Assembly: GCF_963921235.1 (NCBI RefSeq)
Contig: NC_086097.1
Location: 62,188,001 to 62,252,000, forward strand
From: Mobula hypostoma
Lineage: Eukaryota
Direction of reading: 5' to 3'
Length of the DNA: 64,000 nucleotides
In this document: in pieces, positions 4,355 through 59,590 of the stretch
How positions within the stretch are numbered: position 1 is the first letter of the stretch
Layout: every line of letters starts with the position of its first letter
Notes under the pieces: model-generated
The model's database searches: none
What the model saw: only the letters and a program-made list of their open reading frames with translations
Told to the model about the DNA's origin: nothing
Made by a program: the position numbers and the translations under genes

Positions 4355-4920
4355 GCATAGTGGCACAGTAGTTTGTACAGCTGCTTCACAGTTCCATCTA
4401 CCTAGATTCAACCTTGACCTGCAGAGCTATCTGTGTGTGATTCACGTTCTCCCTGTGCGTACTAGGTTCCTCGCAGGTCCCAAAGAGGTGCCAGTTGGTA
4501 TGTTAATTCATCTCTGCAAATTGTCCGTGGTGAGGGTAGTTAGCAGCAAAATCTGTGGAGTACTGCGGGCACGCCTAATAGCAACACACATCAAAGTTGC
4601 TGGTGAACGCAGCAGGCCAGGCAGCATCTCTAGGAAGAGGTACAGTCGACGTTTTGGGCAAAGACCCTTCGTCCCAATGAGATGAAGAGTCTCGGCCTGA
4701 AACGTTGACTGTAGCTCTTCCTAGAGATGCTGCCTGGCCTGCTGCGTTCACCAGCAACTTTGATGTGTGTTGCTTGAATTTCCAGCATCTGCAGAATTCC
4801 TCGTGTTTACATCTAATAGCAAACAGGTTGCAGGGTGGTTGAGGAGTAGGACTATATAGACTGATGAGTTTGCCCTGAGAGCCAGCACAGATTTGCTTAG
4901 CTGAATGATAATGGTGCCAT
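4355..4920 (+). mobile_element. tRNA-derived V-SINE interrupted by a palindromic Penelope insertion
   Basis: A-box tggcacagtag and B-box-like gattcaacc, followed by a partial V domain (ttctccctgtg...cccaaaga). Confidence 0.55.
4583..4812. mobile_element. Palindromic, highly truncated Penelope insertion (two inverted pLTR ends)
   Basis: 4581-4673 is the reverse complement of 4681-4773, with spacer ccaatga. The right arm has a ~40-nt extension. Direct repeat ctaatagc at 4575-4582 and 4813-4820. Confidence 0.85.
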
Positions 4921-7287: not shown

Positions 7288-7718
7288 AACCTGATGGCAT
7301 GAACATTAACTTCTCTAACTTCCATTAATGCCCCACCTTCCCTTCATACCCCATCCATTATTTATTTATTATTATTGTATATTTTTTTCTCTCTCTCTTT
7401 TTCTCCCTCTGTCCCTCTCACTATACCCCTTGCCCATCCTCTGGGTTTCCCTCCTCCTTCTTTCTTTCTCCCTAGGCCTCCTGTCCCATGATCCTCTCAT
7501 ATCCCTTTTGCCAATCACCTGTCCAGCTCTTGTCTCCATCCCTCCCCGTCCTGTCTTCTCCTATCATTTTGGATCCCCCCCTCCCACTTTCAAATCTCTT
7601 ACTAACTCTTCCTTCAGTTGGTCCTGATGAAGGGTCTCAGCCTGAAACATCGACTGTACCTCTTCCTAGAGATGCTTGCTGCTGGCCTGCTGCGTTCACC
7701 AGCAATTTTATGTGTGTT
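7288..7718 (+). mobile_element. Penelope (Neptune-type) 3' end/pLTR, 5'-truncated
   Basis: Highly similar to 38822-39213 and ends at the same ...tgtgtgtt terminus. Confidence 0.85.
7620..7655 (+). ncRNA. Minimal type I hammerhead ribozyme motif (stem III mutated)
   Basis: ggtc CTGATGA a gggt ctca gcct GAAA ca TC gact. Stem I ggtc/gact; the ACGT palindrome has become ACAT. Confidence 0.6.
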
Positions 7719-7979
7719 GTTTATTAGTGTAATCCTTATTATTATTCTATCTCATGCCAGCTCATTTTTCCTTCAATATTTCCACAAACTTTCAAAGACA
7801 TTTTGTCAACTTGGTTTTTTCAGCTTAAATTTCAATTTCATAATGTTATGGTTTGTTTATGACCTTTTATTTGTTTTTTTCTACTTATCTACAATTTTGT
7901 GGAATTTCATTAATTTCATTGGGATCCACTGTTGATCTAATTACAGTAAATTTCGCAAGTCGAAATAAATGAGGTGCTA

Positions 7980-8155: not shown

Positions 8156-9354
8156 GACCTGGTGGCTGATCTCAGCCCAGAATGTTTCCACAGGTGCCTG
8201 TTGAGTTTCTCCGAAATTTGTCTGTGTTGCCATAAATTAGATGTTAACTGCTTTTGCATAACTTTGCCCATTTTTCAATGTTGATATGATTTCAATAGGA
8301 AAGTACTCCCAAACTATTTTTTCTTTGATGCATTTGACACATTTATCACAGTGTGCTGTTCGTTCACCATTTATGATGCTACTTCCACTCTGCTCCCAAG
8401 CTGCTTACTCATACTATAAAAAATAAATGAAACATTAAGATTTTCTAAGATTTTTTATCAACTACTTTTTCTATTTTTAGACAACTTTTCCTTACCTGTC
8501 AAACAAGGTAACACTTCAAATCCAGATATAAGTAATGCAGTGGAGTGTGAAAAGCGCAAATAGGGATACAGAGAAGTAACAGAAACTCTGACTTGTGCTT
8601 AATGATAGCTGGAAAAATATAAATTTATCCTCCAATATTATTTTTGAATTAGTAACGTCAAACAAAATATAGGATCAATTTTTATCTCCAATCTTCTTCA
8701 CTTCTTGGGAGGAACAATGCGGCAGCTACATATGAATTAGTGGGTCTCACATCCAACATGATCTCATCAAATCCAGTGTTCCCTACAAAGTATGCTTCTG
8801 ATGCCCCTAATCAATGCAAAGGAAGTACTGAATAAATGTGTTTATTAGAGTCATATGTCTATTGCAAAGCTCTGTCACAATTTCTTTGAGAAGTGAATAG
8901 TTGAAAGACTGGAGAAAGCACTACTCTGGTATGGAGAACCCTAACACTCCATAAGGATAGAAGATGTTTTTCCATAAATAAATGACATTTTATTTTTGGG
9001 ACCACTGCATAACAAAATAATACATCCCACAAAATTCCTTCAGTTTGCTTCAACTATATGGCAAAATAGCAATGCATTCCGAGCAACAGGGTAGTTGGGC
9101 TACTGGAATCAGGCAGATAATATAATTTCAGCAACCAGCCCTATTCCAGTCACTACAACTAAATGAAATTAATTCCACTGACTAAAACAACCCTCCATTC
9201 TGCAATCAATGAAATCAAAATATTATGTATAAAGCTATGTGTCAATTGTACACTTCATCTCATAAGAAGCCTTTGCTAAGTGTATTTCATAAACAATATT
9301 TTACAAATTAAATTTACACCAGAAAGCTACCTAACATGAATTAAATAATTTAAA

Positions 9355-11620
9355 TTGGGAAGGTCTGATCACAACCTGGTGCATCTAACACCCAGCTACG
9401 TGCCTCTGGTGAAGAGTAAACCTGCAACCTCGAGGACAGTGAGGAAATGGTTTGAGGAGGCTTATGAGGTGCTCCAGGGTTGTTTTGAGGTGACAGACTG
9501 GCAGGCACTCTGTGAGCTACATGGAGAGGATATTGATGGGCTCACAGAGTGCATCACTGATTACATCAACTTCTGTGTGGACTGCAATGTTCCAACAAGA
9601 ACTGTCCTTTGTTATTCAAATAACAAGCCATGGGTAACAAAGGACATTAAGGACATCCTGAATGCTAAAAAGAGGGTGTTTAGAGATGGAAATAGGGAGG
9701 AGCTGAGGGCAATACAGAGGGACCTGAAAGCCAGGATCAGGAAGGCTAAAGACAGGTACAGGAGGAAGCTTGAGTGGAAACTCCAGCAGAACAACATGAG
9801 AGAGGTCTGGAGTGGGATGAGGACCATCACTGGGTTCCGGCAAACTAGCAACAGAGGAGCTGAGGGCAGTGTGGACAGGGCCAACGAACTTAACCTGTTC
9901 TTTAACAGATTTGACATTGTGACCCCTGCCCAACCCCCACATGATTCATCTGTTGTCGGCCCCCAACCAACACATATTCCACTCTCCCCTACTACCCCTC
10001 CTCACAGTCCCCCACCCTGCTCTCATAACTATACCCCTTCCCCACATGAAACCAGCACGGTGGGTTTCACAGCTGAACAGGTGAGAAGACAGCTGAAACG
10101 TCTCAACCCAAGCAAGGACCAGATGGTGTCAGTACCAAGGTGATCAAAGTCTGTGCCCCTCAGCTATGTGGAGTACTTCACCATGTCTTCAACTGGAGTC
10201 TGAGGCTCCGGAGGGTTCCTGTACTGTGGAAGACGTCCTGCCTCATCCCTGTGCCGAAGGTGCCGCGCCCCAGCAGCCTCAATGAATACAGACCGGTGGC
10301 ATTGACCTCCCATATCATGAAGACCCTGGAGAGACTTGTTCTGGAGCTGCTCCGGCCTATGGTCAGGCCACACTTAGATCCCCTCCAGTTTGCCTACCAG
10401 CCCCGACTTGGCGTTGAGGATGCCATCGTCTACCTGCTGAACCATGTCTACGCCCACCTGGACAAGCAAGCGAGCACTGTGAGGGTCATGATTTTTGACT
10501 TCTCCAGTGCATTCAACACTATCCGCCCTGCTCTGCTGGGGGAGAAGCTGACAGTGATGCAGGTAGATGCTTTCCTGGTGTCATGGATTCTTGATTACCT
10601 GACTGGCAGACCACAGTGCATGTGCTTGCAACACTGTGTGTCCGACAGAGTGTGCAATCAGCAGCACTGGGGCTCCACAGGGGACTGTCTTGTCTCCCTT
10701 TCTCTTTACCGTTTACACCTCGGACTTCAATTACTGCACAGAGTCTTGTCATCTTCAGAAGTTTTCGGATGACTCTGCCATAGTTGGATGCATCAGCAAG
10801 GGAGATGAGGCTGAGTACAGGGCTACAGCAGGAAACTTTGTCACATGGTGTGAGCAGAATTATCTGCAGCTTAATGTGAAAAAGACTAAGGAGCTGGTGG
10901 TAGACCTGAGGAGAACTAAGGTACTGGTGACCCCTGTTTCCATCCAGGGGGTCAGTGTGGACATAGTGGAGGATTACAAATACCTGGGGATACGAATTGA
11001 CAATAAACTGGATTGGTCTAAGAACACTGAGGCAGTCTACAAGAAGGGTCAGAGCCGTCTCTATTTCCTGAGGAGACTGAGATCCTTTAACATCTGCCGG
11101 ATGATGCTGAGGATGTTCTACGAGTCTGTGATGGCCAGTGCGATCATGTTTGCTGTTGAGAGCTGGGGCAGCAGGCAGAGGGTAGCAGACACCAACAGAA
11201 TCAACAAACTCATTCGTAAGGCCAGTGATATTGTGGGGATGGAACTGGACTCTCTGACGGTGGTGTCTGAAAAGAGGATGCTGTCCAAGTTGCATGCCAT
11301 CTTGGACAATGTCTCCCATCCACTACATAATGTACTGGTTGGGCACAGGAGTACATTCAGCCAGAGACTCATTCCACCGAGATGCAACACAGAGTGTCAT
11401 AGGAAGTCATTCCTGCCTGTGGCCATCAAACTTTACAACTCCTCCCTTGGAGGGTCAGACACCCTGAACCAATAGGCTGGTCCTGGACTTATTTCCTGGC
11501 ATAATTTACATATTAATATTTAACTATTTATGGTTTTATTACTATTTAATTATTTATGGTGCAACTGTAACAAAAACGAATTTCCCCCGGGATCAATAAA
11601 GTATGACTATGACTATGACT
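9355..11620 (+). mobile_element. Rex1/Babar LINE, 5'-truncated, RT split by two frameshifts
   Basis: ORFs 9355-10143 (GRSDHN, NNKPW), 10140-~10650 (YRPVALTS, DPLQFAY, DFSSAFNTI) and 10636-11475 (GAPQGTVLSPFLF, KFSDD). Ends with AATAAA and a (GACTAT)n tail. Confidence 0.92.
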
Positions 11621-14050: not shown

Positions 14051-16074
14051 AGATATTGTCAAAATCTGGAAAATCAGCTCAGTATAATTACTTTATCATT
14101 TCGAATGTCTGAACAAATTATAGCTTTTAATGTCCTGACAAACATTGAATTTAGGAACATATTATCGTGAAATTACTAACCTCAGCTATAATATTCTTCA
14201 CGGTGAAATAGAGAAAAACTAACCACGTTGCCTGTGTTTTCCTGTTGGACAAGAAATGCTTATTTTACAATTCAAATCCATTTCAACTTTTAGTCCTGGT
14301 GCTGTGTATAAGTGGGAAATTCTGGGAAGGATCATGTTGGTGATGACCTTCTGGCTAATTTACTAAGACCTTTCCATCATTCAATCTGTAATCTCCTCCA
14401 GCACTTCACCTTCACAAGTTATATGCACTCCTCCAACTCTGATCTCTCGAATGTCCCCCGATTTAATAATTGAAGGAATGGTTGCTATGCCTACAGCTGC
14501 TGATCATCTCAGCCCTGAAATAATCTCCCTGGATTTTTCAGCATCCCTGCCTTTTTTTTCTCACTTTAAGATTCTCTTTAAAGCATGCTTCTTTGATATA
14601 TCTTGTGATATTCTCTTATGTGATTCATTGTCAGATGTTGCTTGGTAATGGTCCTGTATGGGACATTCCACTACCTTAAAGATTCAATGTGAATACAAGT
14701 TGCTGGTGTTTAATATTTTATGGATATCAAATTCTTGATAGTCTGTTGACGTGCATCAAAACCATTTCAAAAATGCAAACACTGGGCATGTTTCTTTGTC
14801 AAACTTTGCTGAAACAGACAGTGGGTTAGCATTGTTCTGCCAGGTAAGCATAACCTTGTATAAGAAGGTTTTCTCCAGAGTTTCTGCAAATAATATGGCA
14901 GCGCATGGGAACAAGTTTCAAGAAAATTAACTTTCATGACTGCTTTGCAACACTATTATTCATAGCCACAATCCAGAATCTGTGATATGCCAAGTTCTTG
15001 CCCTGTAAACGTTTGTACAAAGTTCTTACTGTCTGCTGCATCAACTTTAAAAGGACAAACCTAAGGAGGAGTTATAGAGAAGTACAGCACAGAATTAACC
15101 CTTACATACTGTTCGGGTCAACTTTGACCCTTTTGACCGCAGTGAAAACACCCTAAACGTCGTTTTTCCCAGCCAAAATTTTATGACTTTTCCTAAAGTG
15201 ACCCAAAATGCGCAAAAGTGAAAAGATTTTTAAAAATTAAACTTTTATACAGGTGCTACAATTTTTGCAATACTGAAGCTGTTCCAGGCCAAGTTTTACC
15301 CGTACCGATTGCAATGGCTATTGGTGGTCTAATGTTACGTGGAACTCCTGGAAAGGTCATAGTGCCTTGGCGCTGTGGCGAGATCTGCATCTGCAAGCAC
15401 ACGGTGAGCTGAGCATGCATTTTAGTGACGGCAGTTATGGAAGCAAGACGTAGACTTTGTGTTCAGGAAGTAATTGATCAGGTGTTTGAAGATGAACATA
15501 CAGACAGTGAATTGGAGGAGGAATTTTCAGAGCAGGAGGACTACATGGAGGAAGACTCTGATTACAGCCCCTCAGACGAAGACGACTCTGACAGAGAGGA
15601 GGAGAAAGCAAGGGAAATATTTATGTCCAAGGACAACAAGATCTGTTGGTCCTCACTTCCATATGAGGCTGCAGGCAGGATGGCAGCGGAAAATGTCATT
15701 CAGAAGACTCCAGGACCCACAAGACCGGCTGTATCACATGCATTTGACGTTTTATCTACTTTCCTGCTCTCCTGGGAAGCCAGCTGTGGGAGGCCCGGAG
15801 AGAAAGCAAGGCATGCGCGTCGTGTTGGACGTGACAGAAGGGCTGAAAGGAAACAACGTGACCTGTGACAACTTCTTCATGTCTCATGAGCTTGGTCAGG
15901 CGCTCCTAAAGAAGAAAATCACAATGGTAGGTACTGTGAGGTGGAACAAGCCGGAGATGCCACCTGCTCTGACTGAAAGAAGGGGGAGAGAGGTCTTGTC
16001 TTCTAAGTTTGTGTTCACCCATGACACCACAGTTGTGTGGTATGTGGCAAAGAAGAACAAGAATGTGATCCTCA

Positions 16075-16160
16075 GGAGTCTCGGCCTAAAACGTCGACTA
16101 TACCTCTTCCTAGAGATGCTGCCTGGCCTGCTGTGTTTACCAGCAACTTTGATGTGTGTT
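16075..16160 (+). mobile_element. Penelope pLTR 3' end fragment (3' half of hammerhead plus 65 nt)
   Basis: gtctcggcctaaaacgtcgact...gcaactttgatgtgtgtt, matching 39131-39213. Confidence 0.85.
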
Positions 16161-17378
16161 GGATGTAGTGTACCTGGACTTTCAGAAAGCCTTTGATAAG
16201 ATCCCACATAGGAGGTTAGTGGGCAAAATTAGAGCATATGGTATTGGTGGTAGGGTACTGACATGGATAGAAAATTGGTTGGCAGACAGGAAACAAACAG
16301 TAGGGATTAATGGGTCCTTTTCAGAATGGCAGGGAGTGATTAGTGGGGTACCTCAATGCTCGGTGCTGGGACTGCAGCTATTTACAATATACATTAATGA
16401 TTTAGATGAAGGGATTAAAAGTAACATTAGCAAATTTGCAGATGACACAAAGCTGGGTGGCAGTGTGAAATGTGAGGAGGATGTTATGAGAATACAGGGT
16501 GACTTGGACAGCTTGGCTGAGTGGGCAGATGCATGGTAGATGCAGTTTAATTTGGATAAATGTGAGGTTATCCACTTTGGTGGTAAGAACAGGAAGGCAG
16601 ATTACTATCTGAATGGGGTCAAATTTGGAAAAGGGGAAGTACAATGAGATCTGAGTGTCCTTGTTCATCAGTCACTGAAAGTAAGCATACAGGTACAGCA
16701 GGCAGTTAAGAAAGCTATTGGCATGTTGGCATTCATAACAAGGGAAGTTGAGTATAGGAGCAAAGAGGTCCTTCTGCAGTTGTACAAGGCCCTGGTGAGA
16801 CCACACCTGAAGTATGTGTGCAGTTTTGGTCTCCAAATTTGAGGAAGGACATTCTTGCTATGGAGGGAGTGCAGCGTAGGTTCACTGGGTTAATTTCACG
16901 GATGGTGGGAATGTCATATGTTGAAAGATTGGAGCGACTGGGCTTGTATACACTGGAATTTAGAAGGATGAGAGGGGATCTGATTGAAACATATAAGATT
17001 ATTAAGGGATTCGACATGCTGGAGGCAGGAAGCATGTTCCCGATGTTGGGGGAGTCCAGAACCAGAGGCCACAGTTTAAGAATAAGGGGTGGACCATTTA
17101 GAATGGAGTTGAGGAAAAACTTTTTCACACAGAGGGTTGTGGATCTGTGGAATGCTCTGCCTCAGAAGGCAGTGGAGGTCAATTCTCTGGATTCTTTCAA
17201 GAAGGAGTTAGATAGAGCTCTAAAAGAGAGGGGAGTCAAGGGATATGAGGAGAAGGCAGGAATAGGGTACTGATTGTGGATGATCAGCCATGATCACAGT
17301 GAGTGGCGGTGCTGGCTCGAAGGGCCAAATGGCCCCTACTCTTGCACCTATTTTCTGTTGTCTATCGTCTATTGTCTA
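16161..17378 (+). mobile_element. CR1 LINE 3' part (RT and 3' UTR)
   Basis: DVVYLDFQKAFDK, SGVPQ, KFADDTKLGG, RGHSL, FFTQRVV; stops and a frameshift; (TCTATTG)-like tail. Confidence 0.92.
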
Positions 17379-22287: not shown

Positions 22288-22965
22288 TTAGATTATGAGG
22301 ACACTCAGTCCTCATTTATTGTCATTTAGAAATGCATGCATGCATGCATTAAGAAATGATACAATGTTCCTCCAGAGTGATATCTCAGAAAAAAGGACAA
22401 ACCAAAGACTAACATTGACAAGACCACATAATTATAACATATAGTTACACAGCAGTGCAAAGCAATACTATAATTTGATAAAGAGCAGACTATAGGAATG
22501 GTAAAAAAAGTCTCAAAGTTCCGATTGACTCCCGATAGTCCCCGATAGCAGGCGGCAAAAGGGAGAAACTCTCTGCCATAAACCTCCAGGCACTGACAAC
22601 TGTCGGTGCATTGGAAGCACCCGACCACAGCTGACTCTGAGTCCGTCTGAAAAATTTGAGCCTCTGACCAGCCCTTCAACACCGAGCACCGAGCACCAAC
22701 TCTGCCGAGCGCTTCGACCCTATCCCGGCCGCCGAGCAACAAGCAAAGCCGAGGATTTGGGGCCTTCCCCTCCGGAGATTCTGGATCTAACAATAACAGT
22801 GGCAGCGAGAAAGGTATTTCAGAAGTTTCTCCAGATGTTCCTCCATTCTCTGACATCTGTCTCCATCAAATCAGGATTGTGCACAGCACCCTACTTGACA
22901 GATTACAGATATCATTCACCAGAAGTAGTCGCGCAAGCTGCGTCGCGCGCCGTCTTCTCCTCCTC
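22288..22965 (-). mobile_element. Non-coding retroposon with CpG-rich head and LINE-like 3' end
   Basis: The minus strand begins gaggagaagacggcgcgcgacgc and ends aataaatgaggactgagtgtcctcataatctaat (AATAAA, hairpin gaggac/gtcctc, short tail). CpG is well retained. Confidence 0.55.
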
Positions 22966-22984
22966 TTTCTCTTCAAATTGGAGA

Positions 22985-24542
22985 TTCCCAGAGTGCTTAA
23001 GGAAGTAGCCCAAGAAATAGTGGATGCATTAGTGATAATTTTTCAAAACTCGTTAGATTCTGGACTAGTTCCTGAGGATTGGAGGGTGGCTAATGTAACC
23101 CCACTTTTTAAAAAAGGAGGGAGAGAGAAACCGGGGAATTATAGGCCGGTTAGCCTAACGTCGGTGGTGGGGAAACTGCTGGAGTCAGTTATCAAGGATG
23201 TGATAACAGCACATTTGGAAAGCGGTGAAATGATCGGACAAAGTCAGCATGGATTTGTGAAAGGAAAATCATGTCTGACGAATCTCATAGAATTTTTTGA
23301 GGATGTAACTAGTAGAGTGGATAGGGGAGAACCAGTGGATGTGGTATATTTGGATTTTCAAAAGGCTTTTGACAAGGTCCCACACAGGAGATTAGTGTGC
23401 AAACTTAAAGCACACGGTATTGGGGGTAAGGTATTGGTGTGGGTGGAGAATTGGTTAGCAGACAGGAAGCAAAGAGTGGGAATAAACGGGACCTTTTCAG
23501 AATGGCAGGCGGTGACTAGTGGGGTACCGCAAGGCTCAGTGCTGGGACCCCAGTTGTTTACAATATATATTAATGACTTGGATGAGGGAATTAAATGCAG
23601 CATCTCCAAGTTTGCGGATGACACGAAGCTGGGTGGCAGTGTTAGCAGTGAGGAGGATGCTAAGAGGATGCAGGGTGACTTGGATAGGTTGGGGGAGTGG
23701 GCAAACTCATGGCAGATGCAATTTAATGTGGATAAATGTGAAGTTATCCACTTTGGTGGCAAAAATAGGAAAACAGATTATTATCTGAATGGTGGCCGAT
23801 TAGGAAAAGGGGAGGTGCAACGAGACCTGGGTGTCATTATACACCAGTCATTGAAAGTGGGCATGCAGGTACAGCAGGCGGTGAAAAAGGCGAACGGTAT
23901 GCTGGCATTTATAGCGAGAGGATTCGAGTACAGGAGCAGGGAGGTACTACTGCAGTTGTACAAGGCCTTGGTGAGACCACACCTGGAGTATTGTGTGCAG
24001 TTTTGGTCCCCTAATCTGAGGAAAGACATCTTTGCCATAGAGGGAGTACAAAGAAGGTTCACCAGATTGATTCCTGGGATGGCAGGTCTTTCATATGAAG
24101 AAAGACTGGATGAACTGGGCTTGTACTCGTTGGAATTTAGAAGATTGAGGGGGGATCTGATTGAAACGTATAAGATCCTAAAGGGATTGGACAGGCTAGA
24201 TGCGGGAAGATTGTTCCCGATGTTGGGGAGGTCCAGAACGAGGGGTCACAGTTTGAGGATAGAGGGGAAGCCTTTTAGGACCGAGATTAGGAAAAACTTC
24301 TTCACACAGAGAGTGGTGAATCTGTGGAATTCTCTGCCACAGCAAACTGTTGAGGCCGGTTCATTGGCTGTGTTTAAGAGGAAGTTAGATATGGCCCTTG
24401 TGGCTACAGGGGTCAGGGGGTATGGAGGGAAGGCTGGGTTCTGAGTTGGATGATCAGCCATGATCATAATAAATGGCGGTGCAGGCTCGAAGGGCCGAAT
24501 GGCCTACTCCTGCACCTATTTTCTATGTTTCTATGTTTCTAT
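22985..24542 (+). mobile_element. Young 5'-truncated CR1 LINE with uninterrupted RT frame
   Basis: About 485 open codons to the stop at 24444: NYRPVSLTS, QHGF, YLDFQKAFDKVPH, GVPQGSVLGP, KFADD. (TTCTATGT)n tail. Confidence 0.95.
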
Positions 24543-26559: not shown

Positions 26560-28874
26560 CATTAGCAGAATTGGAGGAAACAACACACTGGACCACTATT
26601 ACATGACCATCAAGAATACCTATCATGCTATTATATTCCACGCCCTCACTTTGGGAAGTCTGATCACCTGGCTGTACTTCTACTCCCTGAGTATAGGCAG
26701 AGACTGAAGACTGCAGCACCAGCAGTGAGGACCAAGAAGATATGGACAAGGGAAGCACAGAAGCACTTACAGGACTGCTTTGAATTGGTGGACTGGACTA
26801 TGTTCAGGGATTCATCTTCAAATCTGGATGAGTATGCTGCAGTTGTTATCGACTTCTTTCTTTATTAAAACCTGTGTGAATGAGTATGTGCCTACAAAGA
26901 CATTCTCAAACCAAAAGCCATGGATGAACCAGGAGGTGTGTCATCTGCTGAAGACTAGATCTGTGGCATTCAAGTCTGGCAAACTAGGCCTGTACCAGAA
27001 AAGCAGGTATGATTTGCAAGGGCTATTTCAAGGGCGAAGAGACAATTTCTAACGAGGTTGGAGGCCACATTGGAAGTATGACAACTCTGGCAGGGTTTGC
27101 AAGACATTACTTCCTACAAAGCAAAACCTAATAGCGTGAATGGCAGTGATGCTTCAGTACCAGATTAACTCAATGCCTTCTATACCCGCTTTGAAAGGGA
27201 AAATATAACTACAGCTGTGAAGATCCCTGCTGCACCTCATGACCCTGTGAACTCTCTCTCAGAGGCCGATGTTAGGCTGTCTTTAAAGAGGGTGAACCCT
27301 CGCAAGGCAGAAGGTCCCGATGGAGTACCTTGCAAGGCTCTGAAATCCTGTCCCGACCAGCTGGCGGGAATATTCAATGATATTTTCAACCTCTCACTGC
27401 TATGGGCGGAAGTTCCCACTTGCTTCAAAAAGGCAACAATTATATCAGTGCCTAAGAAGAATAATGTGAGCTGCCTTAATGACTATCGCCTGGTAACACT
27501 CATATCTACAGTGATAAAATGCTTTGAGATATTGGTAATGAACTAAACTCCTGCCTCAGCAAGGACCTGGACCCATTGCAATTTACCTATCGCCACAATA
27601 GGTCAACAGCAGACGCAATCTCAATGGCTCTCCACATGGTTTTAGACCAGCTGGACAACACAAACACCTGTGTCAGGATACTGTTCATCGACAATGGCTC
27701 AGCATTTAACACTGTAATTCCTACAATCCTGATTAAGAAGTTACAAAACCAGGGCCTCTGTACATCCCTTTGCAATTGGATCCTCGACTTTCTAACCGGA
27801 AGATCACATTCTGTACAGATTGGTGATAACACCTCCTCCTCGCTGATGATCAACAATGGCGCACCTCAGGGGTGTGTGCTTAGCCCACTGCTCTACTCTC
27901 TATATACACATGACTGTGTGGCTAGGCATAGCTCAAATACCATCTATAAATTTGCTGATGATACAACCATTGTTAGTAGAATCTCAGGTGGTGATGAGAA
28001 AGACGTACAGGAGCGAGATATGCCAACTATTGGAGTGGTGCTCAGCAACAACCTGGCACTCAACACCATTAAGACAAAAGAGCTGATTGTGGACTTCAGG
28101 AAGGGTAAGAGGAAGGAACACATACCAGTCTTCAGAGACGAATCAGAAGTAGAGAGAGTGAGCAGCTTCAAGTACCAGGATGTCAAGATCTCTACGGATC
28201 CAACCTTGTCTCAACATACTGATGCAGTTATACAGAAAGCAAGACAGCAGCTATACTTCATTCGGAGTTTGAAGAGATTTGGCATGTCAACAAACACGCT
28301 CAAAAACATCTATAGTTATACCTTGGAGAGCATTCCGACAGGCTGCATCACTGTCTGGCATGGAGGTGGGGGGGGGGGGCGCTACTGCACAGGACTGAAA
28401 GAAGCTGCAAAGGGTTGTAAACTTAGCCAGCTCTATCTTGGGTACTAGCCTACAAAGTACCCAGGGCATCTTTGGTGAGTGGGGTTTCAGAAAGGCAGTA
28501 TCCATTATTAAGGACCTCCAGCACCCAGGGCATGCCCTTTTCTTACTGTTACCATCAAGTAGGAGGTACAGAAGCCTGAAGGCACACACTCAGCAATTCA
28601 AGAACAGCTTCTTCACTTCTGCCATCTGATTCCTAAATGGACATTGAATCCTTGGACACTACCTCACTTTTTTAATACACATTATTTCTGGGGGGGGGGG
28701 GTGTTTGAGCGATTTTTAATCTACTCAATATAAATATACTGCAATTGATTTACTTTTTTATTTATTATTATTTTTTTTCTTATATATTATGTATTGCATT
28801 GAATTGCTGCTGCTGTTAACGAATTTCACGACACATGCCAGTGATAATAAACGTGATTCTGATTCTGATTCTGA
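26560..28874 (+). mobile_element. Rex1/Babar LINE, degenerate EN end and RT
   Basis: NQKPWMN, LNDYRLVTL, SAFNT, GAPQGCVLSPLLYSLYTHDC, KFADDTT; (GATTCT)n tail. Confidence 0.9.
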
Positions 28875-30983: not shown

Positions 30984-33851
30984 CTTTATACTTCATACTC
31001 GCCAAAAAAATGGTACTAGAACGCACAATCATCACAGCAATATTTGATTCTGCGCTTCACACTCCCTGGATTACAAATATTAAATATTAAAAATTGTTAA
31101 AATTAGTAAATATTAAAAACTTAAATTATAAATCAGAAATAGAAAATAGAAAAATGGGAATTAAGGTAGTGCAAAAAAACCGAGAGGCAGGTCCAGATAT
31201 TTGGAGGGTACGGCCCAGATCCGGGTCAGGATCCGTTCAGCAGTCTTATCACAGTTGGAAAGAAGCTGTTCCCAAATCTGGCCGTATGAGTCTTCAAGCT
31301 CCTGAACCTTCTCCCGGAGGGAAGAGGGACGAAAAGTGTGTTGGCTTGGTGGATCATGTTCTTGATTATCCTGGCAGCACTGTTCCGACAACGTGTGGTG
31401 TAAAGTGAGTCCACGGATGGGAGATTGGTTTGTGTGATGTGCTGCACCGTGTTCACGACCTTCTACAGCTTCTTTCGGTCTCGGACAGGACAGCTTCCAT
31501 ACCAGGTTGTGATGCACCCTAGAAAAATGCTTTCTACAGGGCATCTATAAAAATTAGTGAGAGTTTAGGGGACAGGCCAAATTTCTTTAGTCTTCTCAGG
31601 AAGTAAAGGCGCTGGTGGGCCTTCTTGGCAGTGAACTGTGCTTGGTTGGACCAAGTCAGGTCATTTGTGATATTGACCCTGAGGAACTTAAAGCTTTTGA
31701 CCTGTTCCACTTGTGCACCACCGATGTAAATTGGGTTGTGTGGTCCACTACTCCTTCTGAAGTCAATAACCAATTCCTTCGTCTTGCTGACGTTGAGGGA
31801 TAGGTTATTGTCTTCGCACCATGCCACCAGATTCTTAATTTCCTCTCTGTACTCAAACTCATCATTACCCGAGATACGGCCTACAATTGCTTGTGTCATC
31901 AGCAAACTTATATATTGAGTTTGATGGAAACTTGGCTACACAATCATGGGTGTACAGTGAGTACAGCAGGGGGCTGAGTACACAGCCTTGTGGGGCACCG
32001 GTGCTCAGAGTGATTGTAGAGGAGAGCTTGTCCCCTATTTTTACAGCCTGGGTCCTGTCTGTGAGGAAGTTGAAGATCCAGCTGCAGATCTGAGTGCTAA
32101 GGCCCAGGTTCCGGAGCTTAGGAATCAGTTTATTTGGAATGATGGTATTAAAGGCAGAGCTGTAGTCAATGAAAAGGAACCTTACGTATGCGTCTTTATT
32201 CTCCAGGTTTTCTAAGGAGGAACGTCGGGCCAGAGAGATGGCATCTGCCATTGACCTGTTGCTCCGGTAGACGAATTGCAAAGCGTCGAGGTTGACCGGT
32301 AGGCTGTGGTTGATGTGGGCCATAACCAATCTCTCGAAGCACTTCATAGCAATTGACGTCAGAGCCACAGGTCGATAGTCATTCAGGCATGCCACCTTGC
32401 TCTTCTTCGGCACTGGGATTATGGTTGCCTTCTTAAAACATGAGAGGATCTCAGACTGAAGCAAGGGCCAGATGAAGATGTCAGCAAACACTCCAGCTAG
32501 CTCGGTTGCACAGGCCCAGAGAACCCGTCCTGGGATGCCATCTGGGCCCGTCGCCTTCCTTGGATTTATCTTCAGGAAGGCCCTTCTAACGTCCTCCTCG
32601 GTGACGATGAATCTCGATGCCACCAGGTCCAGTTCATCCGGAGGAAGCGGGATGCTTCTCTTCTGTTCGAATCTTGCGTAGAATACGTTAAGTTCGTCAG
32701 GAAGAGAAGCGCCACAGTTATTGATATTCCCAGCCTTTTCTTTGCTCCCAGTAGTCTCATTTAGACCCTGCCATAGTCTACTGGCGTCCCTTTGGTTAGC
32801 CTGGGCTTCCAACTTGGCTCGATATTGCCTCTTGGTGCCCATAATGGCTTTCCAGAGTTCACTCCTGGATTCCGTGTAGCGACTGGTATCCCCGGACCTA
32901 AAAGCCACAGCTCTAGCCTTTAAAAGGGGCTTGACCTCATAATTCATTCAAGGATTCCGGTTAGGGAATACCCGGATTGTCTTGCGAGACACACAGTCCT
33001 CCGTGAATTTCCAAATAAAGTCGGTAACAGCTGAGGCATACTCATTGAGGTTAGCTGCCGAGTCCTTGAATACTAACCAGTCCACCGATTCAAAGCTGTC
33101 ACGGAGGACCTCATCTGTTTCCTCTGTCCAACACGACACTGCTTTTGACACAGTGACCTCCTGCTTCAGTTTCTGTTTGTAAGCTGGGTTGAGGAGTACG
33201 GCCTGATGGTCCGATTTTCCGAAGTGAGGTCGTGGGATGGAACAGTAGGCATCCTTGAGTGTTGGTATAACTTTGGCAGTGCCTTTCTGAGGTTGGCCTG
33301 GTTAAATTCCCCAGGTGTAATGAGCAAAGCCTCCAGATACCTGGTCTCAAGTTCACTGATGTTGGCATATAGTATGTTCAGAGCACACTCCACGTCCACC
33401 TGAGAGGGAATGTAGACAGCTGTCAGTATCGCAGATAGTAGGGACGACACTTCACCAACAGGTGTTCCAGGTCCGGGCTGCAGGAGCTTGTCAGTGCCAC
33501 TGTGTCCGAGCACCACCCAGTGTTGATCAGTAGGCAGACACCACCTCCCCTCGTCTTGCCCGAAGATGTCGTGCGGTCCATCCGATGGATCAAAAATCCC
33601 TCCGGTCAGATGGCACAGTTGGGGGTGGCAGGGGAGAGCCAGGTCTAGGTGAAACAGAGTACACAGCAGTTCTGCATCTCCCAGCAGTAGGTGAGTCTCC
33701 CTTTAAGATCATCCACCTTGTTCTCTATGGCTTGCACATTAGCTAGTAGGATGGTGGGCATAGGGACCCTGAAGCCCCTCAGCTTCAATCTGACCAGCAG
33801 CCCAGCTCTTTTCCCATGCTTCCTCGGTTAGTACTGCATCTTTCCAGTTCT
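30984..33851 (-). mobile_element. Rex1/Babar LINE with nearly full EN and RT, several frameshifts and stops
   Basis: AVYIP, GEFNQANL, LNDYRPVALTS, FIDYSSAFNTI, GAPQGCVLSPLLYSLYT, KFADD, RFGNSFFPTVIRLLN; (AAGTAT)-like tail. Confidence 0.92.
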
Positions 33852-35526: not shown

Positions 35527-37914
35527 AACTATTCCAGAATCTAGTGATTCTTGAAAAATCATTACTAATGCCTCCACAATCTCTTCAGCTACCTCTTTCA
35601 GTACCTTGTGGTGTACACCATTTGGTCCAAGTTATTTATCTACCTTTAGACTTTTTGGTTTCTCAAGAACCTTCTCTCTAGTTCTGGTAGCTTCATGGTC
35701 CTTGACACCTGGGACTCCCACCATACTGTTGGTGTCTTCCACAGTGAAACTGATGCAAAATACTTATTCAGTTGGTCCACCATCACTACCTCTCTAGAAA
35801 AGTTCTCCAGTGGAATGAAGTCCACTCTTGCCTTTTTTTACACTATGTATCTGAAGAAACTTTTCCTATCCTCTTATTGGCTAGCTTATTTTCATATTCC
35901 ATCTTTACCCTAATGATTTTTCTAGATTTCTCTGTTGGTTTGTAAAGGCATCCCAATCTTCTAACTTCCCACTAATTTTTAGCTCATTATATGCCTTCTT
36001 TGACTTTATGGTAGCCTTGAATCCTCTTTATCCAGAGTTGTGTCATTTTCTTCTTCAGAATGCTTCCTCCTCTTTGGATTGTATATATTTTGTGCCCTTG
36101 GAATTGCTTTCAGAAATTCCAGCCATAGTTGCTCTGCCATCATCCCTGCCAGTGTTCTTTTCCAATCAATTCTGGCCAACTCCTCTCTCATGCTTCTGCA
36201 ATTCCCTTTATTCCACTATAATGTTGATACGCCTGTCTTTAGCTTCTCTTTCTCAAATTTCAGAGTTAATTCGATCATACTGTGATCATTTGTCCCCAGG
36301 GGTGATTTTACCTGAAGCTCTCTGATCAATTCTGGTTCATCGCACAACACCAATCCAAAACAGCATCATGAAGTTTATCTCCTTGTAGAGTCAACCACAA
36401 GCTGCTCTAAAATCCCAATCTCATAAGTACTCCGGAAATGTTCCCTCCCGGAATCCAGCACCAACCTTAATTTCCCCCAATCAACCTGCATATTGATGTC
36501 CCCCATGACTTTTGTAATATTGCTCTTTTAGCATACATTTTCTATCTCCCATTGTAGTTTATAATTCACATGCTTACTGTTTGGGGTCTGTGTACAACTC
36601 CCATCAGAATCTTTTCTACCCATACCATTCCTTAGCTCTATCCACAATGATTCATCACCTTCTGACCCAATGTCACCTCTTTCTAATGATTTGATTTCAT
36701 ACCAACTGAGTAAAACCACCCCCACCCCGTCTTCCTGCCTATCTTTTCGATACAATATATGCATTTGTACATTAAGCTCTCAGCTATAATCTTCTTTCAG
36801 CCATGATTCAGTGATGTCTACAACATCATATAAGAGAGTCTGAAACTGTGCTGCAAGTTCATTGACCTTATTCCGTATAATGCACACATTCAAGTATAAC
36901 ACCTCCAGTCCTGTATTCACCTTTTTTGATTTTGTCCACCTTTTGCATTACAACGCAACCTGTAGACTGTAATTTTGCCCTGTCAACACATTACACATTA
37001 CCTCTGTTTGTAAATCAGCTACCTCATCTTCAGCACTATTATCTGTCTTTCCTGTAATACTTCTAGCTTTGAATGTATGCAACTCAGGACACTAGTCGCA
37101 CCATGCTCAACCTTTTAATTCCTAACTTTGCCTGATGCCTTACCAAGATCTGTGTCCACCACCTCTCCACTAACTATTCTGGCACTCTGATTCCCATCCC
37201 CCTACAACTAAGCATATCACCATATACAAACTTTGAAATTTATTGTCTTGCAGGCATACTCAAAAACCCATAGAACAATAACCATAACAGAATCAATGAA
37301 AGAACATACCAACTTGAGCATTCAACCAGTTTGCATAAAAAACAACAAACTGCAAATACAAGAAAGGAATAATAACAGTAAACAAGCAATAAATAGAGAA
37401 CAAGAGATGAAGAGTCTTTGAGGTGAATCCATAGGTTGTGAGAACATTTCAATGGCAAGGCACATGAAGTTGGGTTGATATCCCCTTTGGTGTCACAACT
37501 GACGAGATAGCTTCAATTTTAACTTTCCTCACACTGAGCAGGGGTGGATCCAATTGCAGAGAAAATTCACACAAACTGTAGAGAAAAAAATTCAACAAGG
37601 CTTTACCGAACTCCTTAGCACAGGCAAAGTCAAAATCTGAAATCATTGACAAGAACTAGAGATTCCTCCAAACAGAGGAAAGGCTCTGCTTACAAAAGAT
37701 GACTCCAAGAATAAGCAAAAAATGAGGGACAGGGAACCTGTGTAGGGCTACAAACAAGACAAAGGTGATAACAATGAACTAATATGTAGCCTAATAGGCA
37801 GGTGAACAGGAAGCGCAAACACGAGGAATTCCGCAGATGCTGGAATTTCAAGCAACACAAATCAAAGTTGCTGGCGAACACAGCAGACCATGCAGCATCT
37901 CTAGGAAGAGGTAC

Positions 37915-37950
37915 AGTCAACGTTTCAGGCCAAGACCCTTTGTCAGGACG
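37915..37950 (-). ncRNA. Decayed hammerhead motif in the inverted pLTR
   Basis: Minus strand gtc CTGACAA a gggt cttg gcct GAAA cg TT gact; core G8 is replaced by A. Confidence 0.5.
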
Positions 37951-38344
37951 AACGGAAAGAAGAGCTAGTAAGCGAATTGAAAGTGGGAGGGGGAGGGGGA
38001 GATCTGAAATGATAGGAGAAGACAGGAGGGGGGAGGGATGGAGCCAAGAGCTGGACAGGTGATTGGCAAAAGGGATATGAGAGGATCATGGGACAGGAGG
38101 CCTAGGGAGAAAGAAAGGGGGAGGGGCAAGCCCAGAGGATGGGCAAGAAGTATAGTGAGAGGGACAGAGGGAGAAAAAGGAGAGGGAGAAAATAAAAGTT
38201 AATAATAATAATAAATAAATAAATAACAGATGGGGTACGAAGGGGAGGTGGGGCGTTAACGGAAGTTAGAGAAGTCAATGTTCATGCCATCAGGTTGGAG
38301 GCTACCCAGACGGAATATAACGTGTTGTTCCTCCAACCTGAGTG

Positions 38345-38862
38345 CTGTTTCCTCCCCGCCGTCTCTGCTTTCCACAGGGATTGCTCCCTACGTGACTCCC
38401 CTGTCCATTTGTCCCCCCCATCCCTCCCCACTGATCTCCCTCCTGGCACTTTATCCTTGTAAGCGGAACAAGTGCTACACATGCCCTTACACTTCCTCCC
38501 TTACCACCATTCAGGGCCCCAGACAGTCCTTCCAGTTGAGGCGACACTTCACCTGTGAGTCGGCTGGGGTGATATACTGCGTCCGGTGCTCCCGATGTGG
38601 CCTTCTATATATTGGCGAGACCCGATGCAGACTGGGAGATCGTTTTGCTGAACACCTACGCTCTGTCCGCTGGAGAAAGCAGGATCTCCCAGTGGCCACA
38701 CATTTTAATTCCACATCCCATTCCCATTCTGATATGTCTATCCACGGCCTTCTCTACTGTCAATATGAAACCACACTCAGGTTAGAGGAACAACACCTTA
38801 TATTCCGTCTGGGTAGCCTCCAACCTGATGGCATGAACATTGACTTCTCTAACTTCTGCTAA
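38345..38862 (+). pseudogene. Penelope GIY-YIG endonuclease fragment with Cys-rich linker
   Basis: PCKRNKCYTC...FTCESAGVIYCVRCSRCGLLYIGET...RFAEH...VATHFN...LEEQHLIFRLGSLQPDGMN; the RT is absent. Confidence 0.92.
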
Positions 38863-39116
38863 TGCCCCACCTCCTCCATTATTTATTTATATACACACAT
38901 TCTTTCTTTCTCTCTCCTTTTTCTCCCTCTGTCCCTCTGACTATACCCCTTGCCCATCCTCTGGGTTTTTTTTCTCCCCCCCCCCCAACTTTTCCTTCTC
39001 CCTGGGCCTCCTGTCCCATGATCCTCTCATATCCCCTTTGCCAATCACCTGTCCAGCTCTTGGCTCCATCCCTCCCCCTCCCACTTTCAAATCTCTTACT
39101 AGCTCTTCCTTCAGTT

Positions 39117-39152
39117 AGTCCTGACGAAGGGTCTCGGCCTGAAACGTCGACT
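39117..39152 (+). ncRNA. Minimal type I hammerhead ribozyme, intact core
   Basis: agtc CTGACGA a gggt ctcg gcct GAAA CG TC gact. Stem I agtc/gact; palindromic ACGT in place of stem III; predicted cut after GUC at 39148. Confidence 0.8.
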
Positions 39153-41304
39153 GTACCTCTTCCTAGAGATGCTGCCTGGCCTGCTGCGTTCACCAGCAAC
39201 TTTGATGTGTGTTAGGTGAACAGGAAGGTTTGGCCTCGTCATCTCTGCCACCCTCTGGTGGCCAGTTTCAGATGTGACAATGCCCCCCCCCCCCACCCTC
39301 CTCTACAACTGGCTCTTGACAATGACTGGAATTCTACTGCAAATTCTGCAACAGATCAGGCCCCTTGGTGCAGATCTCCCAGCCACTCTTTTTTGGTGAT
39401 CAAAAACCTGTTCAAGGGTGTCTGTGAACACCCTTAGATCACTGCAAATTGGAGATTGCCAGAACCATGGAGCAGTTGCCCACTCTTGTGCACAAGTGGA
39501 GATATAATTCAGGCAATCTTGGATGTATCAGACTGAATGGCTGAGGGCTGGTGCCCAGAGCCAAGGGCACACCAAGTCAGAAGGCCTTTGCAACTACCAG
39601 GATTGCCATCATAACACTGGGAAAAATGGATCTTGGGTTCTTTGGCTGGCACATTTGCAGGTGGCACTGTCCCAGGAGGCAGAACCAGTGCAGGCATTGG
39701 CATTGCACCAGGACAAGGATCTTATCTTCAGGAAGGCATGTATGTAACTGCTGAAGAGATTCTCCTAACAGCATCCAAAAGCTGGTGTAGTTGTCCTTGA
39801 TGTGTAGCAAGCAAGGCTCCCTGTTTAGCAACAGCAGTGCAGAGTTGTTCCTTCTCTGCTGGGTCCCTTTGATGGATTATTCTTACTATCACAGCTGACT
39901 AGGTAACTTCTTCAGTTTTAAATTCTCTTGTACTGAGTAGTGGTGAACCCAATTGCAGAGAAAGTCACACAAAGTTAGAGGAAAAAAATCCAACAAGGCA
40001 TTACTGGATTCCTCAACAGGCACAGTACAGACAGAGGGTCCAAAAAAAACTCACAGGCATAGTCAAACTCCAAAGAACATTAACTAGAACTAGAGATTCC
40101 TACAATCAAAAGCAAAGCCTCAGTTACAAAAGATAACTCCAAAATAAGGTACAAGAGATAACAATGAACTAATAATTAGCCTTACATGAAGATGAGTAAC
40201 AAGAAGGGGTTGGCTTTGTCATCTTTGCCTCCCTCTGGTGGCCATCTGATTCAAAAGCCGAATTGTTGAGGGGTCTTAACCGTGTCTGAGCCGAGTGATG
40301 TGAGTCCTGAGGCTCCTATACCTTCCACATGATGGCAGCAGTGAGAAGTGAGCATGCCCTGGATGGTGGGGGCGGGTGGGGGGGGGATCCCTAATGGTAG
40401 AAACAGCAAGAGCTTTTATTATAGATGTGCTCAATGACAGTGAGGGCTCTAATTATGATGATGTTGGGGTGTATCCACTACCTTTTTAAGGATTTTACAG
40501 CTCAAGGTCATTGCTGTTTCCATACCAGGTTGTGATGCAACCAGTCCCTACACATCCATAAAAGTTTGCCAAAGTTTGCCGAATTTCCGCAGACTCATAA
40601 AGGAAGTAGAAGAGCTGTTGTGTTAAAATTATAAACGCACTTACAAGCTGGTCCCAGGACAGGTCCTCCAAAATAATAACACCGAGGAATTTAAAGTTAC
40701 TGACCATCTCCACCTCTGATCCTCCAATGAAGAGTGATGCCTCATGGACATCTGGTTTCTTCTCCTAAAGTCATTGGTCTTGCTGACATTGAGTAAGAGG
40801 CTGTTGTTATGGCACCACATAGCCAGATTTTCAATCTCCCTCCTATACACCACTTCATCATCACCTTTGATTTGACAGAGGTATCATCAGCAAATGGCAC
40901 TGGAGCTGTGCATACTCAGAAAGTCATAAGTATAAAGTGAGTGGAGCAAGGGCTAATCATGGTTTACCTGTGCTGATGGTGATAGACGAGGAGATGTTGT
41001 TGCCAATCCAAACTGACTGGCGTCTGCAAGTGGGGAAATAAAAGATCCAATAGCACAAAAAGATATTGAGGCCAAGGTCTTGGACGTTATTTTTGAGGGA
41101 ATCATGCTACTGAATGCTCATCTGTAGTCAATAAAGAGCATCCTGATGTATACATATTTGTTGTCCATATGTTCCAGGGTTGAGTGAAGAGCCAATAAGG
41201 TGGCATCCGCTGTGGACCTGTCACTCTGGTAGGCAAATTGAAGCAGATCCAAGTCGCTTCGCAGGGAGAAATAGATAATTTCATCACCATCTTCTCAAAA
41301 CAGC

Positions 41305-54391: not shown

Positions 54392-54489
54392 AAGTCCTGA
54401 CGAAGGGTCTCGGCCCGAAATGTTGACTGTACCTCTTCCTATAGATGCTGCCTGGCCTGCTGCGTTCACCAGCAACTTTGATGTGTGTT
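54392..54489 (+). mobile_element. 98-bp Penelope-derived insertion (hammerhead plus short 3' tail) with 9-bp TSD
   Basis: TSD acattgagg at 54383-54391 and 54490-54498; the insert matches 39117-39213. Confidence 0.9.
54393..54428 (+). ncRNA. Minimal hammerhead motif with CpG decay in stem III
   Basis: agtc CTGACGA a gggt ctcg gccc GAAA tg TT gact. Confidence 0.65.
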
Positions 54490-58904: not shown

Positions 58905-59590
58905 AGGAATCTATGGAAACGAATAATGATTCAGTGTTTTAGGCTTAGGCCCTTCTTTCTAAGTGGGAAGAAAGGTGAAAAACGCCAGAATAAAATGCTG
59001 GGGGAGACATGAAATGAGGACTTGTTAGAAGGTGATAGGTGAAGCCATGTGGGTGAGAACGAGAAAGGACTGGAGAAGAAGGAATCTGAGAGGCCTCCAA
59101 CCTGATTTAAGCAGCAATACCTCATATTTCATCTAGGTAGCCTCCAACCTGAGGGCATGATCATTCATTTCTCTTTCTGGTAAAAAAAATTGATTCCCTC
59201 CTCCTTTCCTCTTCTTCTATTCCCCAAAATTGTCTGTTACCTCTTCTCCTCAACTGCTTATCACCTTCCCCTGGTGCCTCACCTTCTTCCCTTTCTCCTG
59301 TGGTCCACTGTCCTCTTCTTCTTCTTTCAGATTCAATCTCGTCTCAGATTCCTTCAGTTCCTGCCCCCACCTGGTTTCACCTATCACCTTCTAGCTAGTC
59401 CTCCTTTATCTCCTCCCAGCTTTTTTAATCTGACATCTTCCCCTTTCCTTTCCAGCCCTGAAGAAGGGTCTTGTCCCAAAACTTTGACTGTTCATTCATT
59501 TCCATAGATGCAGCATGACCTACTAAGCTCCACCACAATTTTGTGTGCCTGGCTCTGAATTTCCAGCATCTGCAGAATCTCTTGTTTTTA
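58905..59590 (+). mobile_element. Older Penelope copy with inverted 5' segment
   Basis: An antisense pLTR piece at 58905-59095 precedes a sense GIY-YIG end (QQYLIFHLGSLQPEGM) and a pLTR with ccagccCTGAAGAagggtcttgtcccAAAActttgactg at ~59452-59490. Confidence 0.65.

Follow-up and report, generated by a model that had tools for sequence, protein, structure and literature searches.

Reading of the 64,000-nucleotide stretch of Mobula hypostoma DNA analysed here (the window) confirmed that positions 39117–39152 of the forward strand make up a complete minimal type I hammerhead, predicted to be self-cutting, and that this copy is intact. The motif's sequence, coordinates and stem assignment agree exactly with the original prediction. 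On the plus strand, stem I is formed by 39117–39120 and 39149–39152, and the core C3–A9 (39121–39127) is followed by an extra A (39128), stem II (39129–39132 with 39137–39140, including a G.U pair at 10.1–11.1), G12–A15.1 (39141–39144), the palindrome ACGU (39144–39147) and C17 (39148), with the cut predicted between 39148 and 39149. The core CUGANGA ... GAAA ... UH is present, one more stem I pair is possible (U39116.G39153), and there is no helix III; the proposed palindromic stem III could be read from the sequence as ACGU at 39144–39147, the 15.1–16.1 segment. The proposal of an extra base after A9 also held, as the stem II register with the extra A is 1.4–2.5 kcal/mol better in context, and an extra base between A9 and 10.1 was found in six of six motif families. 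The register without the extra A was rejected on account of its lower stability in the folding model.

A scan with Rfam covariance models returned no hammerhead family at E ≤ 5, which would favour a resemblance to hammerheads by chance. Against this stand the location in a pLTR, the covariation seen in sister families and the rarity of the full descriptor (core, extra base, stems I and II, and paired 15.2–16.2), which matched the window at 39121 and 54397 only and found a match of any kind in just 1 of 200 dinucleotide shuffles of the window (mean 0.005). Chance resemblance, to which we give practically no probability, is already refuted by the genome count, the shuffles and the sister-family covariation. 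The motif class was published in 2014 (Cervera), and the motif at 39117 is a further member, with an unusually high copy number and a G.U variant at a conserved pair. A literature search for the motif in sharks, or for a transcript start at a hammerhead of a Penelope-like element (PLE), gave nothing specific; the supplements of PMC4209133 may list the motif.

The host element and its insertion

The motif belongs to a 5'-truncated Penelope-like element at 38348–39213 (plus strand), which contains the end of the RT–EN linker, GIY-YIG, a pyrimidine-rich 3' region, the hammerhead and 61 nt more, and has no tail. Translation of its coding region at 38455–38862 (plus strand; stop at 38860–38862) gives a CX4CxxC linker motif and a GIY-YIG/CCHH endonuclease; the Pfam GIY-YIG match to this region (E=0.0015) lies below the gathering score, and the region differs from a full-length copy, L047, by 5.4% substitutions. 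L047, one of nine loci picked for long open frames, shows the full layout, with a motif (2420), a 1043-aa frame with RT and GIY-YIG, and a second motif (5938) in direct repeat 3,518 nt from the first. The RT and GIY-YIG Pfam matches of L047 are both below the gathering score, its motifs having been identified by direct reading. The original assignment to a Penelope pLTR is borne out by the tandem layout of L047 and by the position of the hammerhead on the sense strand, where it starts 254 nt 3' of the GIY-YIG stop.

A single frame with RT and C-terminal GIY-YIG (in L047), partial tandem pLTRs, an inverted truncated copy and a tail at one end, all characters of EN+ Penelope-like elements, were found, together with the CX2-5CxxC linker between RT and EN and the CCHH motif of Neptune described in PMC8557442. 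The CX4CxxC linker fits Neptune or Nematis rather than Penelope or Poseidon (PMC8557442), and the host element likely belongs to the Neptune clade, on the basis of this single linker motif, which Nematis shares.

The element adjoins an inverted 5'-truncated partner copy at 37814–38347 (minus strand), which carries a tail of ~37–40 nt (about 37814–37853) and a hammerhead at 37915–37950 (minus strand) that is predicted to be inactive, with G8A and a GUU triplet. Aligned over 429 positions, the direct and inverted halves show 36 differences (8.4% substitutions). They are one insertion because an identical 14-bp target-site duplication, read from the flanks, frames the pair (37800–37813 on the left and 39214–39227 on the right, plus strand). 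The insertion occupies one copy of an older local duplication (37500–37810, 39214–39280 and 39900–40250), and the other copy is the empty site; a related stretch at about 40171–40250 is uninterrupted. Elsewhere, the window holds several LINE-type RT remnants and one DDE_Tnp_1_7 transposase remnant (9349–11475, 22660–24444, 27528–28448, 31865–32947 and 15474–16196).

Relatives in the window and in the genome

All 14 other places named in the original prediction are relatives of the 39117 motif, 12 of them by fuzzy match, the one at ~1800 by a downstream-flank profile and the one at 58935 by minus-strand reading. The repeated waves of copies that had been proposed are supported. The supposed close copies are mostly not intact hammerheads, being cut off inside the motif or changed in core, triplet or palindrome, and the estimate of roughly 15 motifs is too high for intact ribozymes, as one is fully intact (39117) and two pass the descriptor. 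For example, both short copies of the head-to-head pair at 4580–4812 are truncated inside the core; the copies at 4644/4675 and 16078 are 5'-truncated inside the motif, with first bases that correspond to 39123 and 39131; the copy at 7620–7655 (plus strand, within a truncated element at 7288–7722) has an intact core and a broken palindrome (ACAU); and a short solo copy at 54393–54489 (plus strand), which starts at stem I, combines an intact core with a GUU triplet and an AUGU palindrome.

Many insertions consist of two short copies in head-to-head orientation, with the joint at or within the motif (loci L001, L015, L025, L090, L147, L250 and L283, and 4580–4812 in the window); such pairs would form long hairpins if transcribed. 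A weak Rfam match to mir-3926 at 4609–4745 corresponds to the head-to-head pair in the window.

A genome-wide search gave 45,139 matches to a 34-base pattern in the 3.48-Gb genome, with 0 for the control. Position 11.1 is U in 38,661 of these near-exact copies (86%, giving the G.U at 10.1–11.1 as in 39117) and C in 6,478, while older copies are mixed (U in 37 of 94 and C in 48 of 94). In a sample of 100 evenly spaced 10-kb stretches of the genome, the downstream-flank profile alone gave 209 matches (control 0), which extrapolates to about 700,000. After removal of 26 partial or edge matches, 136 of the remaining 183 resembled the motif; core, stems and palindrome are kept in 18 of 42 young copies versus 1 of 94 old ones, and descriptor-passing copies amount to about 25 per Mb. 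Most genome copies are likely inert leftovers.

An older subfamily has an apparent C at core position 6 (L149:+4050, L106:+632, L106:+7085, L061:-1804 and L055:6283); A6C is described in PMC3088659 as a natural variant with low activity. At L047:2400–2640, U at N7 creates an ATG inside the core that opens a 14-codon upstream frame, and the young C7 variant removes this ATG.

Conservation and covariation

Between young and old copies the majority letter changes in 2 of the 36 columns of the motif (N7 and 11.1), as compared to 24 of 30 columns upstream, 5 of 12 adjacent downstream columns and 9 of 46 further on; this count is restricted to the 136 of 183 copies that are motif-like, a filter that works in the motif's favour, and the old copies are a mixed group. 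In contigs of four runs from four organisms, similarity is lost at 39117 and 39154. The expectation of a core more conserved than its flanks thus held for the 5' flank and across families, but within the family stem II and the loop match the core and the downstream flank is fairly conserved. Decay of non-CpG core columns versus the downstream flank was 0.147 versus 0.154 in old copies and 0.026 versus 0.042 in young ones. Selection on inserted copies was rejected, as core and downstream flank have decayed to nearly the same extent in old copies, and the core only a little less in young copies.

Within the family there is no stem II covariation because stem II is no less fixed than the core. 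Stem I covariation was not seen within the family either; among 100 listed copies, out of 1,145 in which the 5' arm has changed, the 3' arm is mostly still the original one, as expected of neutral decay.

Sister families were searched for with core-only patterns that have longer spacers and contain no stem II, and these gave 1,846 matches versus 399 for the control, and 319 versus 14 for a second pattern. Core, extra base and G10.1–C11.1 recur in five further motif families, whose stems II differ yet pair. Across families, 75.9% of stem II cells are paired, as compared to 31–49% in slid structures (26 equal-length copies, four families), and double-sided changes occupy 23 cells versus 10.5 after shuffling, with 0 of 500 shuffles as high (26 copies; relatedness inflates the shuffle test). 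Covariation of stem I across sister families is weak. The sister families at L168–L211 number at least five and have stems II of 6–7 bp. A GIY-YIG-like frame lies 640 nt upstream of the motif at L189, the only 1 of 44 loci of families B–F with a GIY-YIG-like motif upstream, and a search with the L047 protein matched none of the families B–F loci, its sole match being a locus of family A. The other motif families are probably other PLE families.

Ends of copies and the putative start of the RNA

Short sister copies show a pile-up of 5' ends at 39105–39126 (plus strand), which suggests a transcript start at about 39112–39118. Of 58 young-like copies, including 7 from the window and 3 at a locus edge, 17 begin at 39105–39126, none at 39083–39104, 2 at 39127–39148 and 7 at 39149–39170. 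Among 101 copies chosen for the whole motif, 26 begin at 39112–39118 and 8 at 39084–39101. On these positions, the pile-up at the motif's 5' edge likely marks an RNA start at or near stem I.

The same pile-up could arise by stalling or template switching of reverse transcriptase as it runs into the pyrimidine tract, or could reflect a splice acceptor, and we regard this as possible though improbable on balance. The ends spread over about 20 nt, many of them in inverted pairs, and full-length copies do not start at the pile-up: none of seven exact 5' ORF junction copies starts at 39112–39118, five having a longer pLTR and two starting at 39128 and 39130, which counts against a transcript start. 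An acceptor-like stretch, moreover, stands just 5' of stem I in both subfamilies. This putative signal at 39097–39118 (plus strand) resembles a branch point, a pyrimidine tract and an AG acceptor, and its sequence differs between the subfamilies. A D. virilis intron that ends at helix I (PMC4209133) points the same way. However, the short copies share no upstream exon, several solos flanked by a target-site duplication have a clean start at 39116–39118, the exact spliced junction has two genome matches, neither with the ORF end before it, and a GT..AG joint occurs in 0 of the 15 joints shown (of 118).

Only in old copies does a donor-like GT overlap the ORF stop. An intron between ORF stop and motif was considered and rejected, since the 10 junction matches had the form of microhomology and just one of them was preceded by the ORF end. 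No spliced form was found; PLEs keep introns, so splicing is still compatible with this result.

The 3' ends of copies cluster near 39213–39217 and 39249–39253 and resemble the two RT start sites of the anole work (PMC11167929). Starts exactly at the cut site number 498, about threefold more than three bases upstream (183) or three bases downstream (147). Of 15 starts at 39149 that were examined, two of them from one tandem locus, six share microhomology with an inverted partner; in 30 loci whose ends fall at 39146–39151, the G residues at 39149 and 39146 account for 11 and 10 starts, respectively. The excess at the cut site is a hint that some templates may have been cut; microhomology and a G bias are also present.

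Folding and the likelihood of cleavage

In the folding model, the isolated motif forms a rod in which core GACG pairs with the cut-site CGUC. Scores were -11.5 kcal/mol for the active double hammerhead, -22.0 for two rods and -30.3 for the best dimer duplex, which is inactive, in a model that ignores the non-standard pairs and contacts of the core and magnesium. The same ranking was obtained for 8 of 8 motifs tested from five families. Self-cleavage by the 39117 copy is doubtful.

The original prediction had the copy possibly active in trans or as a dimer; likely activity as a dimer was not supported. An RNA-only ribozyme of this kind, acting once host transcription reads through the locus, would draw on a core, two stems and a palindrome that are all intact and could find partners among the about 25 descriptor-passing copies per Mb; weak cutting is also reported for dimer and trimer constructs of a Schistosoma motif (PMC4209133), while the monomers tested in that paper were inactive, in agreement with the folding model. 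Against it, the own insertion offers no same-strand partner, the copy in it being antisense and carrying G8A; the closest copy that combines the same strand with an intact core lies at a distance of 15.3 kb, and its triplet is GUU; and the active dimer is far less stable than its alternatives, ~10 kcal/mol worse than two rods. The anole PLE hammerhead cut only with its protein, was dispensable for insertion and left no reads ending at the cut site (PMC11167929). We consider RNA-only activity of this copy quite unlikely.

A further alternative is that the motif of the youngest subfamily no longer cuts and persists solely in a structural or promoter role. The G10.1–C11.1 pair is highly conserved, though not invariant, in minimal hammerheads (PMC4209133), whereas U stands at 11.1 in 38,661 of the 45,139 near-exact copies, and C at N7 strengthens the inactive rod (-11.6 versus -9.9 with U). 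Yet the catalytic positions are all the same between subfamilies, with the free N7 as the sole core change, and stem II is still closed by a G.U pair, and we hold a loss of cutting in this subfamily to be unlikely. The natural U11.1/C11.1 and C7/U7 variants are a ready pair for an activity test.

Proposed explanation

Taken as a whole, we find it probable that the locus carries a Neptune-type minimal hammerhead as an inert passenger, that cutting is aided by protein and that the RNA starts near stem I. The 39117 copy would be the passenger of a 5'-truncated insertion, likely templated by uncut RNA; a copy that contains the whole motif implies a template RNA that was uncut or rejoined. In working tandem copies (pLTR–ORF–pLTR), transcription likely begins at stem I or just ahead of it, and the RNA is predicted to fold by default as a rod, with the core paired to the cleavage triplet, and so to stay uncut. 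Cutting after GUC would occur only when two copies refold via the ACGU palindrome, likely with the aid of the element's protein. Reverse transcription likely begins at two sites, about 60–65 and 100 nt past the cut site, and proceeds through the uncut motif; initiation on the 5' copy would bring it to the RNA end after 100–140 nt, which would yield the very many short solo copies.

A more specific version would have the RNA start at stem I and the hammerhead act as a protein-gated self-decapping switch: uncut capped RNA would be translated and reverse-transcribed, a cut would remove the cap and the first 31–37 nt, and the small excess of copies with starts exactly at the cut site would record germ-line cleavage. 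About 30% of young copies would, on such a reading, be complete copies of the first 100–140 nt of the RNA. We put this version forward tentatively, as rather unlikely.

Comparison with known systems

The motif described here and the minimal hammerheads of the PLE pLTRs of Xena, Poseidon and Neptune (PMC4209133) both lack helix III, have a palindromic 15.2–16.2 and one extra base between 9 and 10.1, share a short helix I and the pLTR location, and occur mostly as dispersed single copies. Compared with those hammerheads, stem II is here only 4 bp long and the dominant subfamily has G10.1.U11.1.

The Poseidon hammerhead of the Anolis element PAc (PMC11167929) is alike in that the motif lies just 5' of two 3'-end sites that define the tail, and in that unprocessed RNA is the main template, as is likely here. 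It differs in that the first methionine of the ORF is here downstream of the tail, not at stem II, and the linker is of Neptune type. Neptune EN+ PLEs (PMC8557442) likewise have a C-terminal GIY-YIG with CCHH and the CX2-5CxxC linker, partial tandems, an inverted 5'-truncated copy and a tail at one end only.

Non-LTR retrozymes (bioRxiv 10.64898/2026.07.22.740005) resemble the present copies as non-coding, hammerhead-bearing pieces related to pLTRs. They are described as head-to-tail arrays with a ribozyme in each unit, whereas here the pieces are solos and head-to-head pairs cut from the end of a coding element. No head-to-tail array with a hammerhead per unit was found at the 39117 locus, and the 100 sampled 10-kb stretches contained two same-strand pairs of descriptor matches, 6–7 kb apart.

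The 45,139 near-exact copies found here compare with about 4,000 in the coelacanth and 9,000 in Xenopus (PMC4209133), with search methods that differ. The class has been known since 2014 and this motif is an ordinary one; its young copies, which number in the tens of thousands, form a genomic record of template ends, with one 10-nt zone for the putative RNA start and one cut position.
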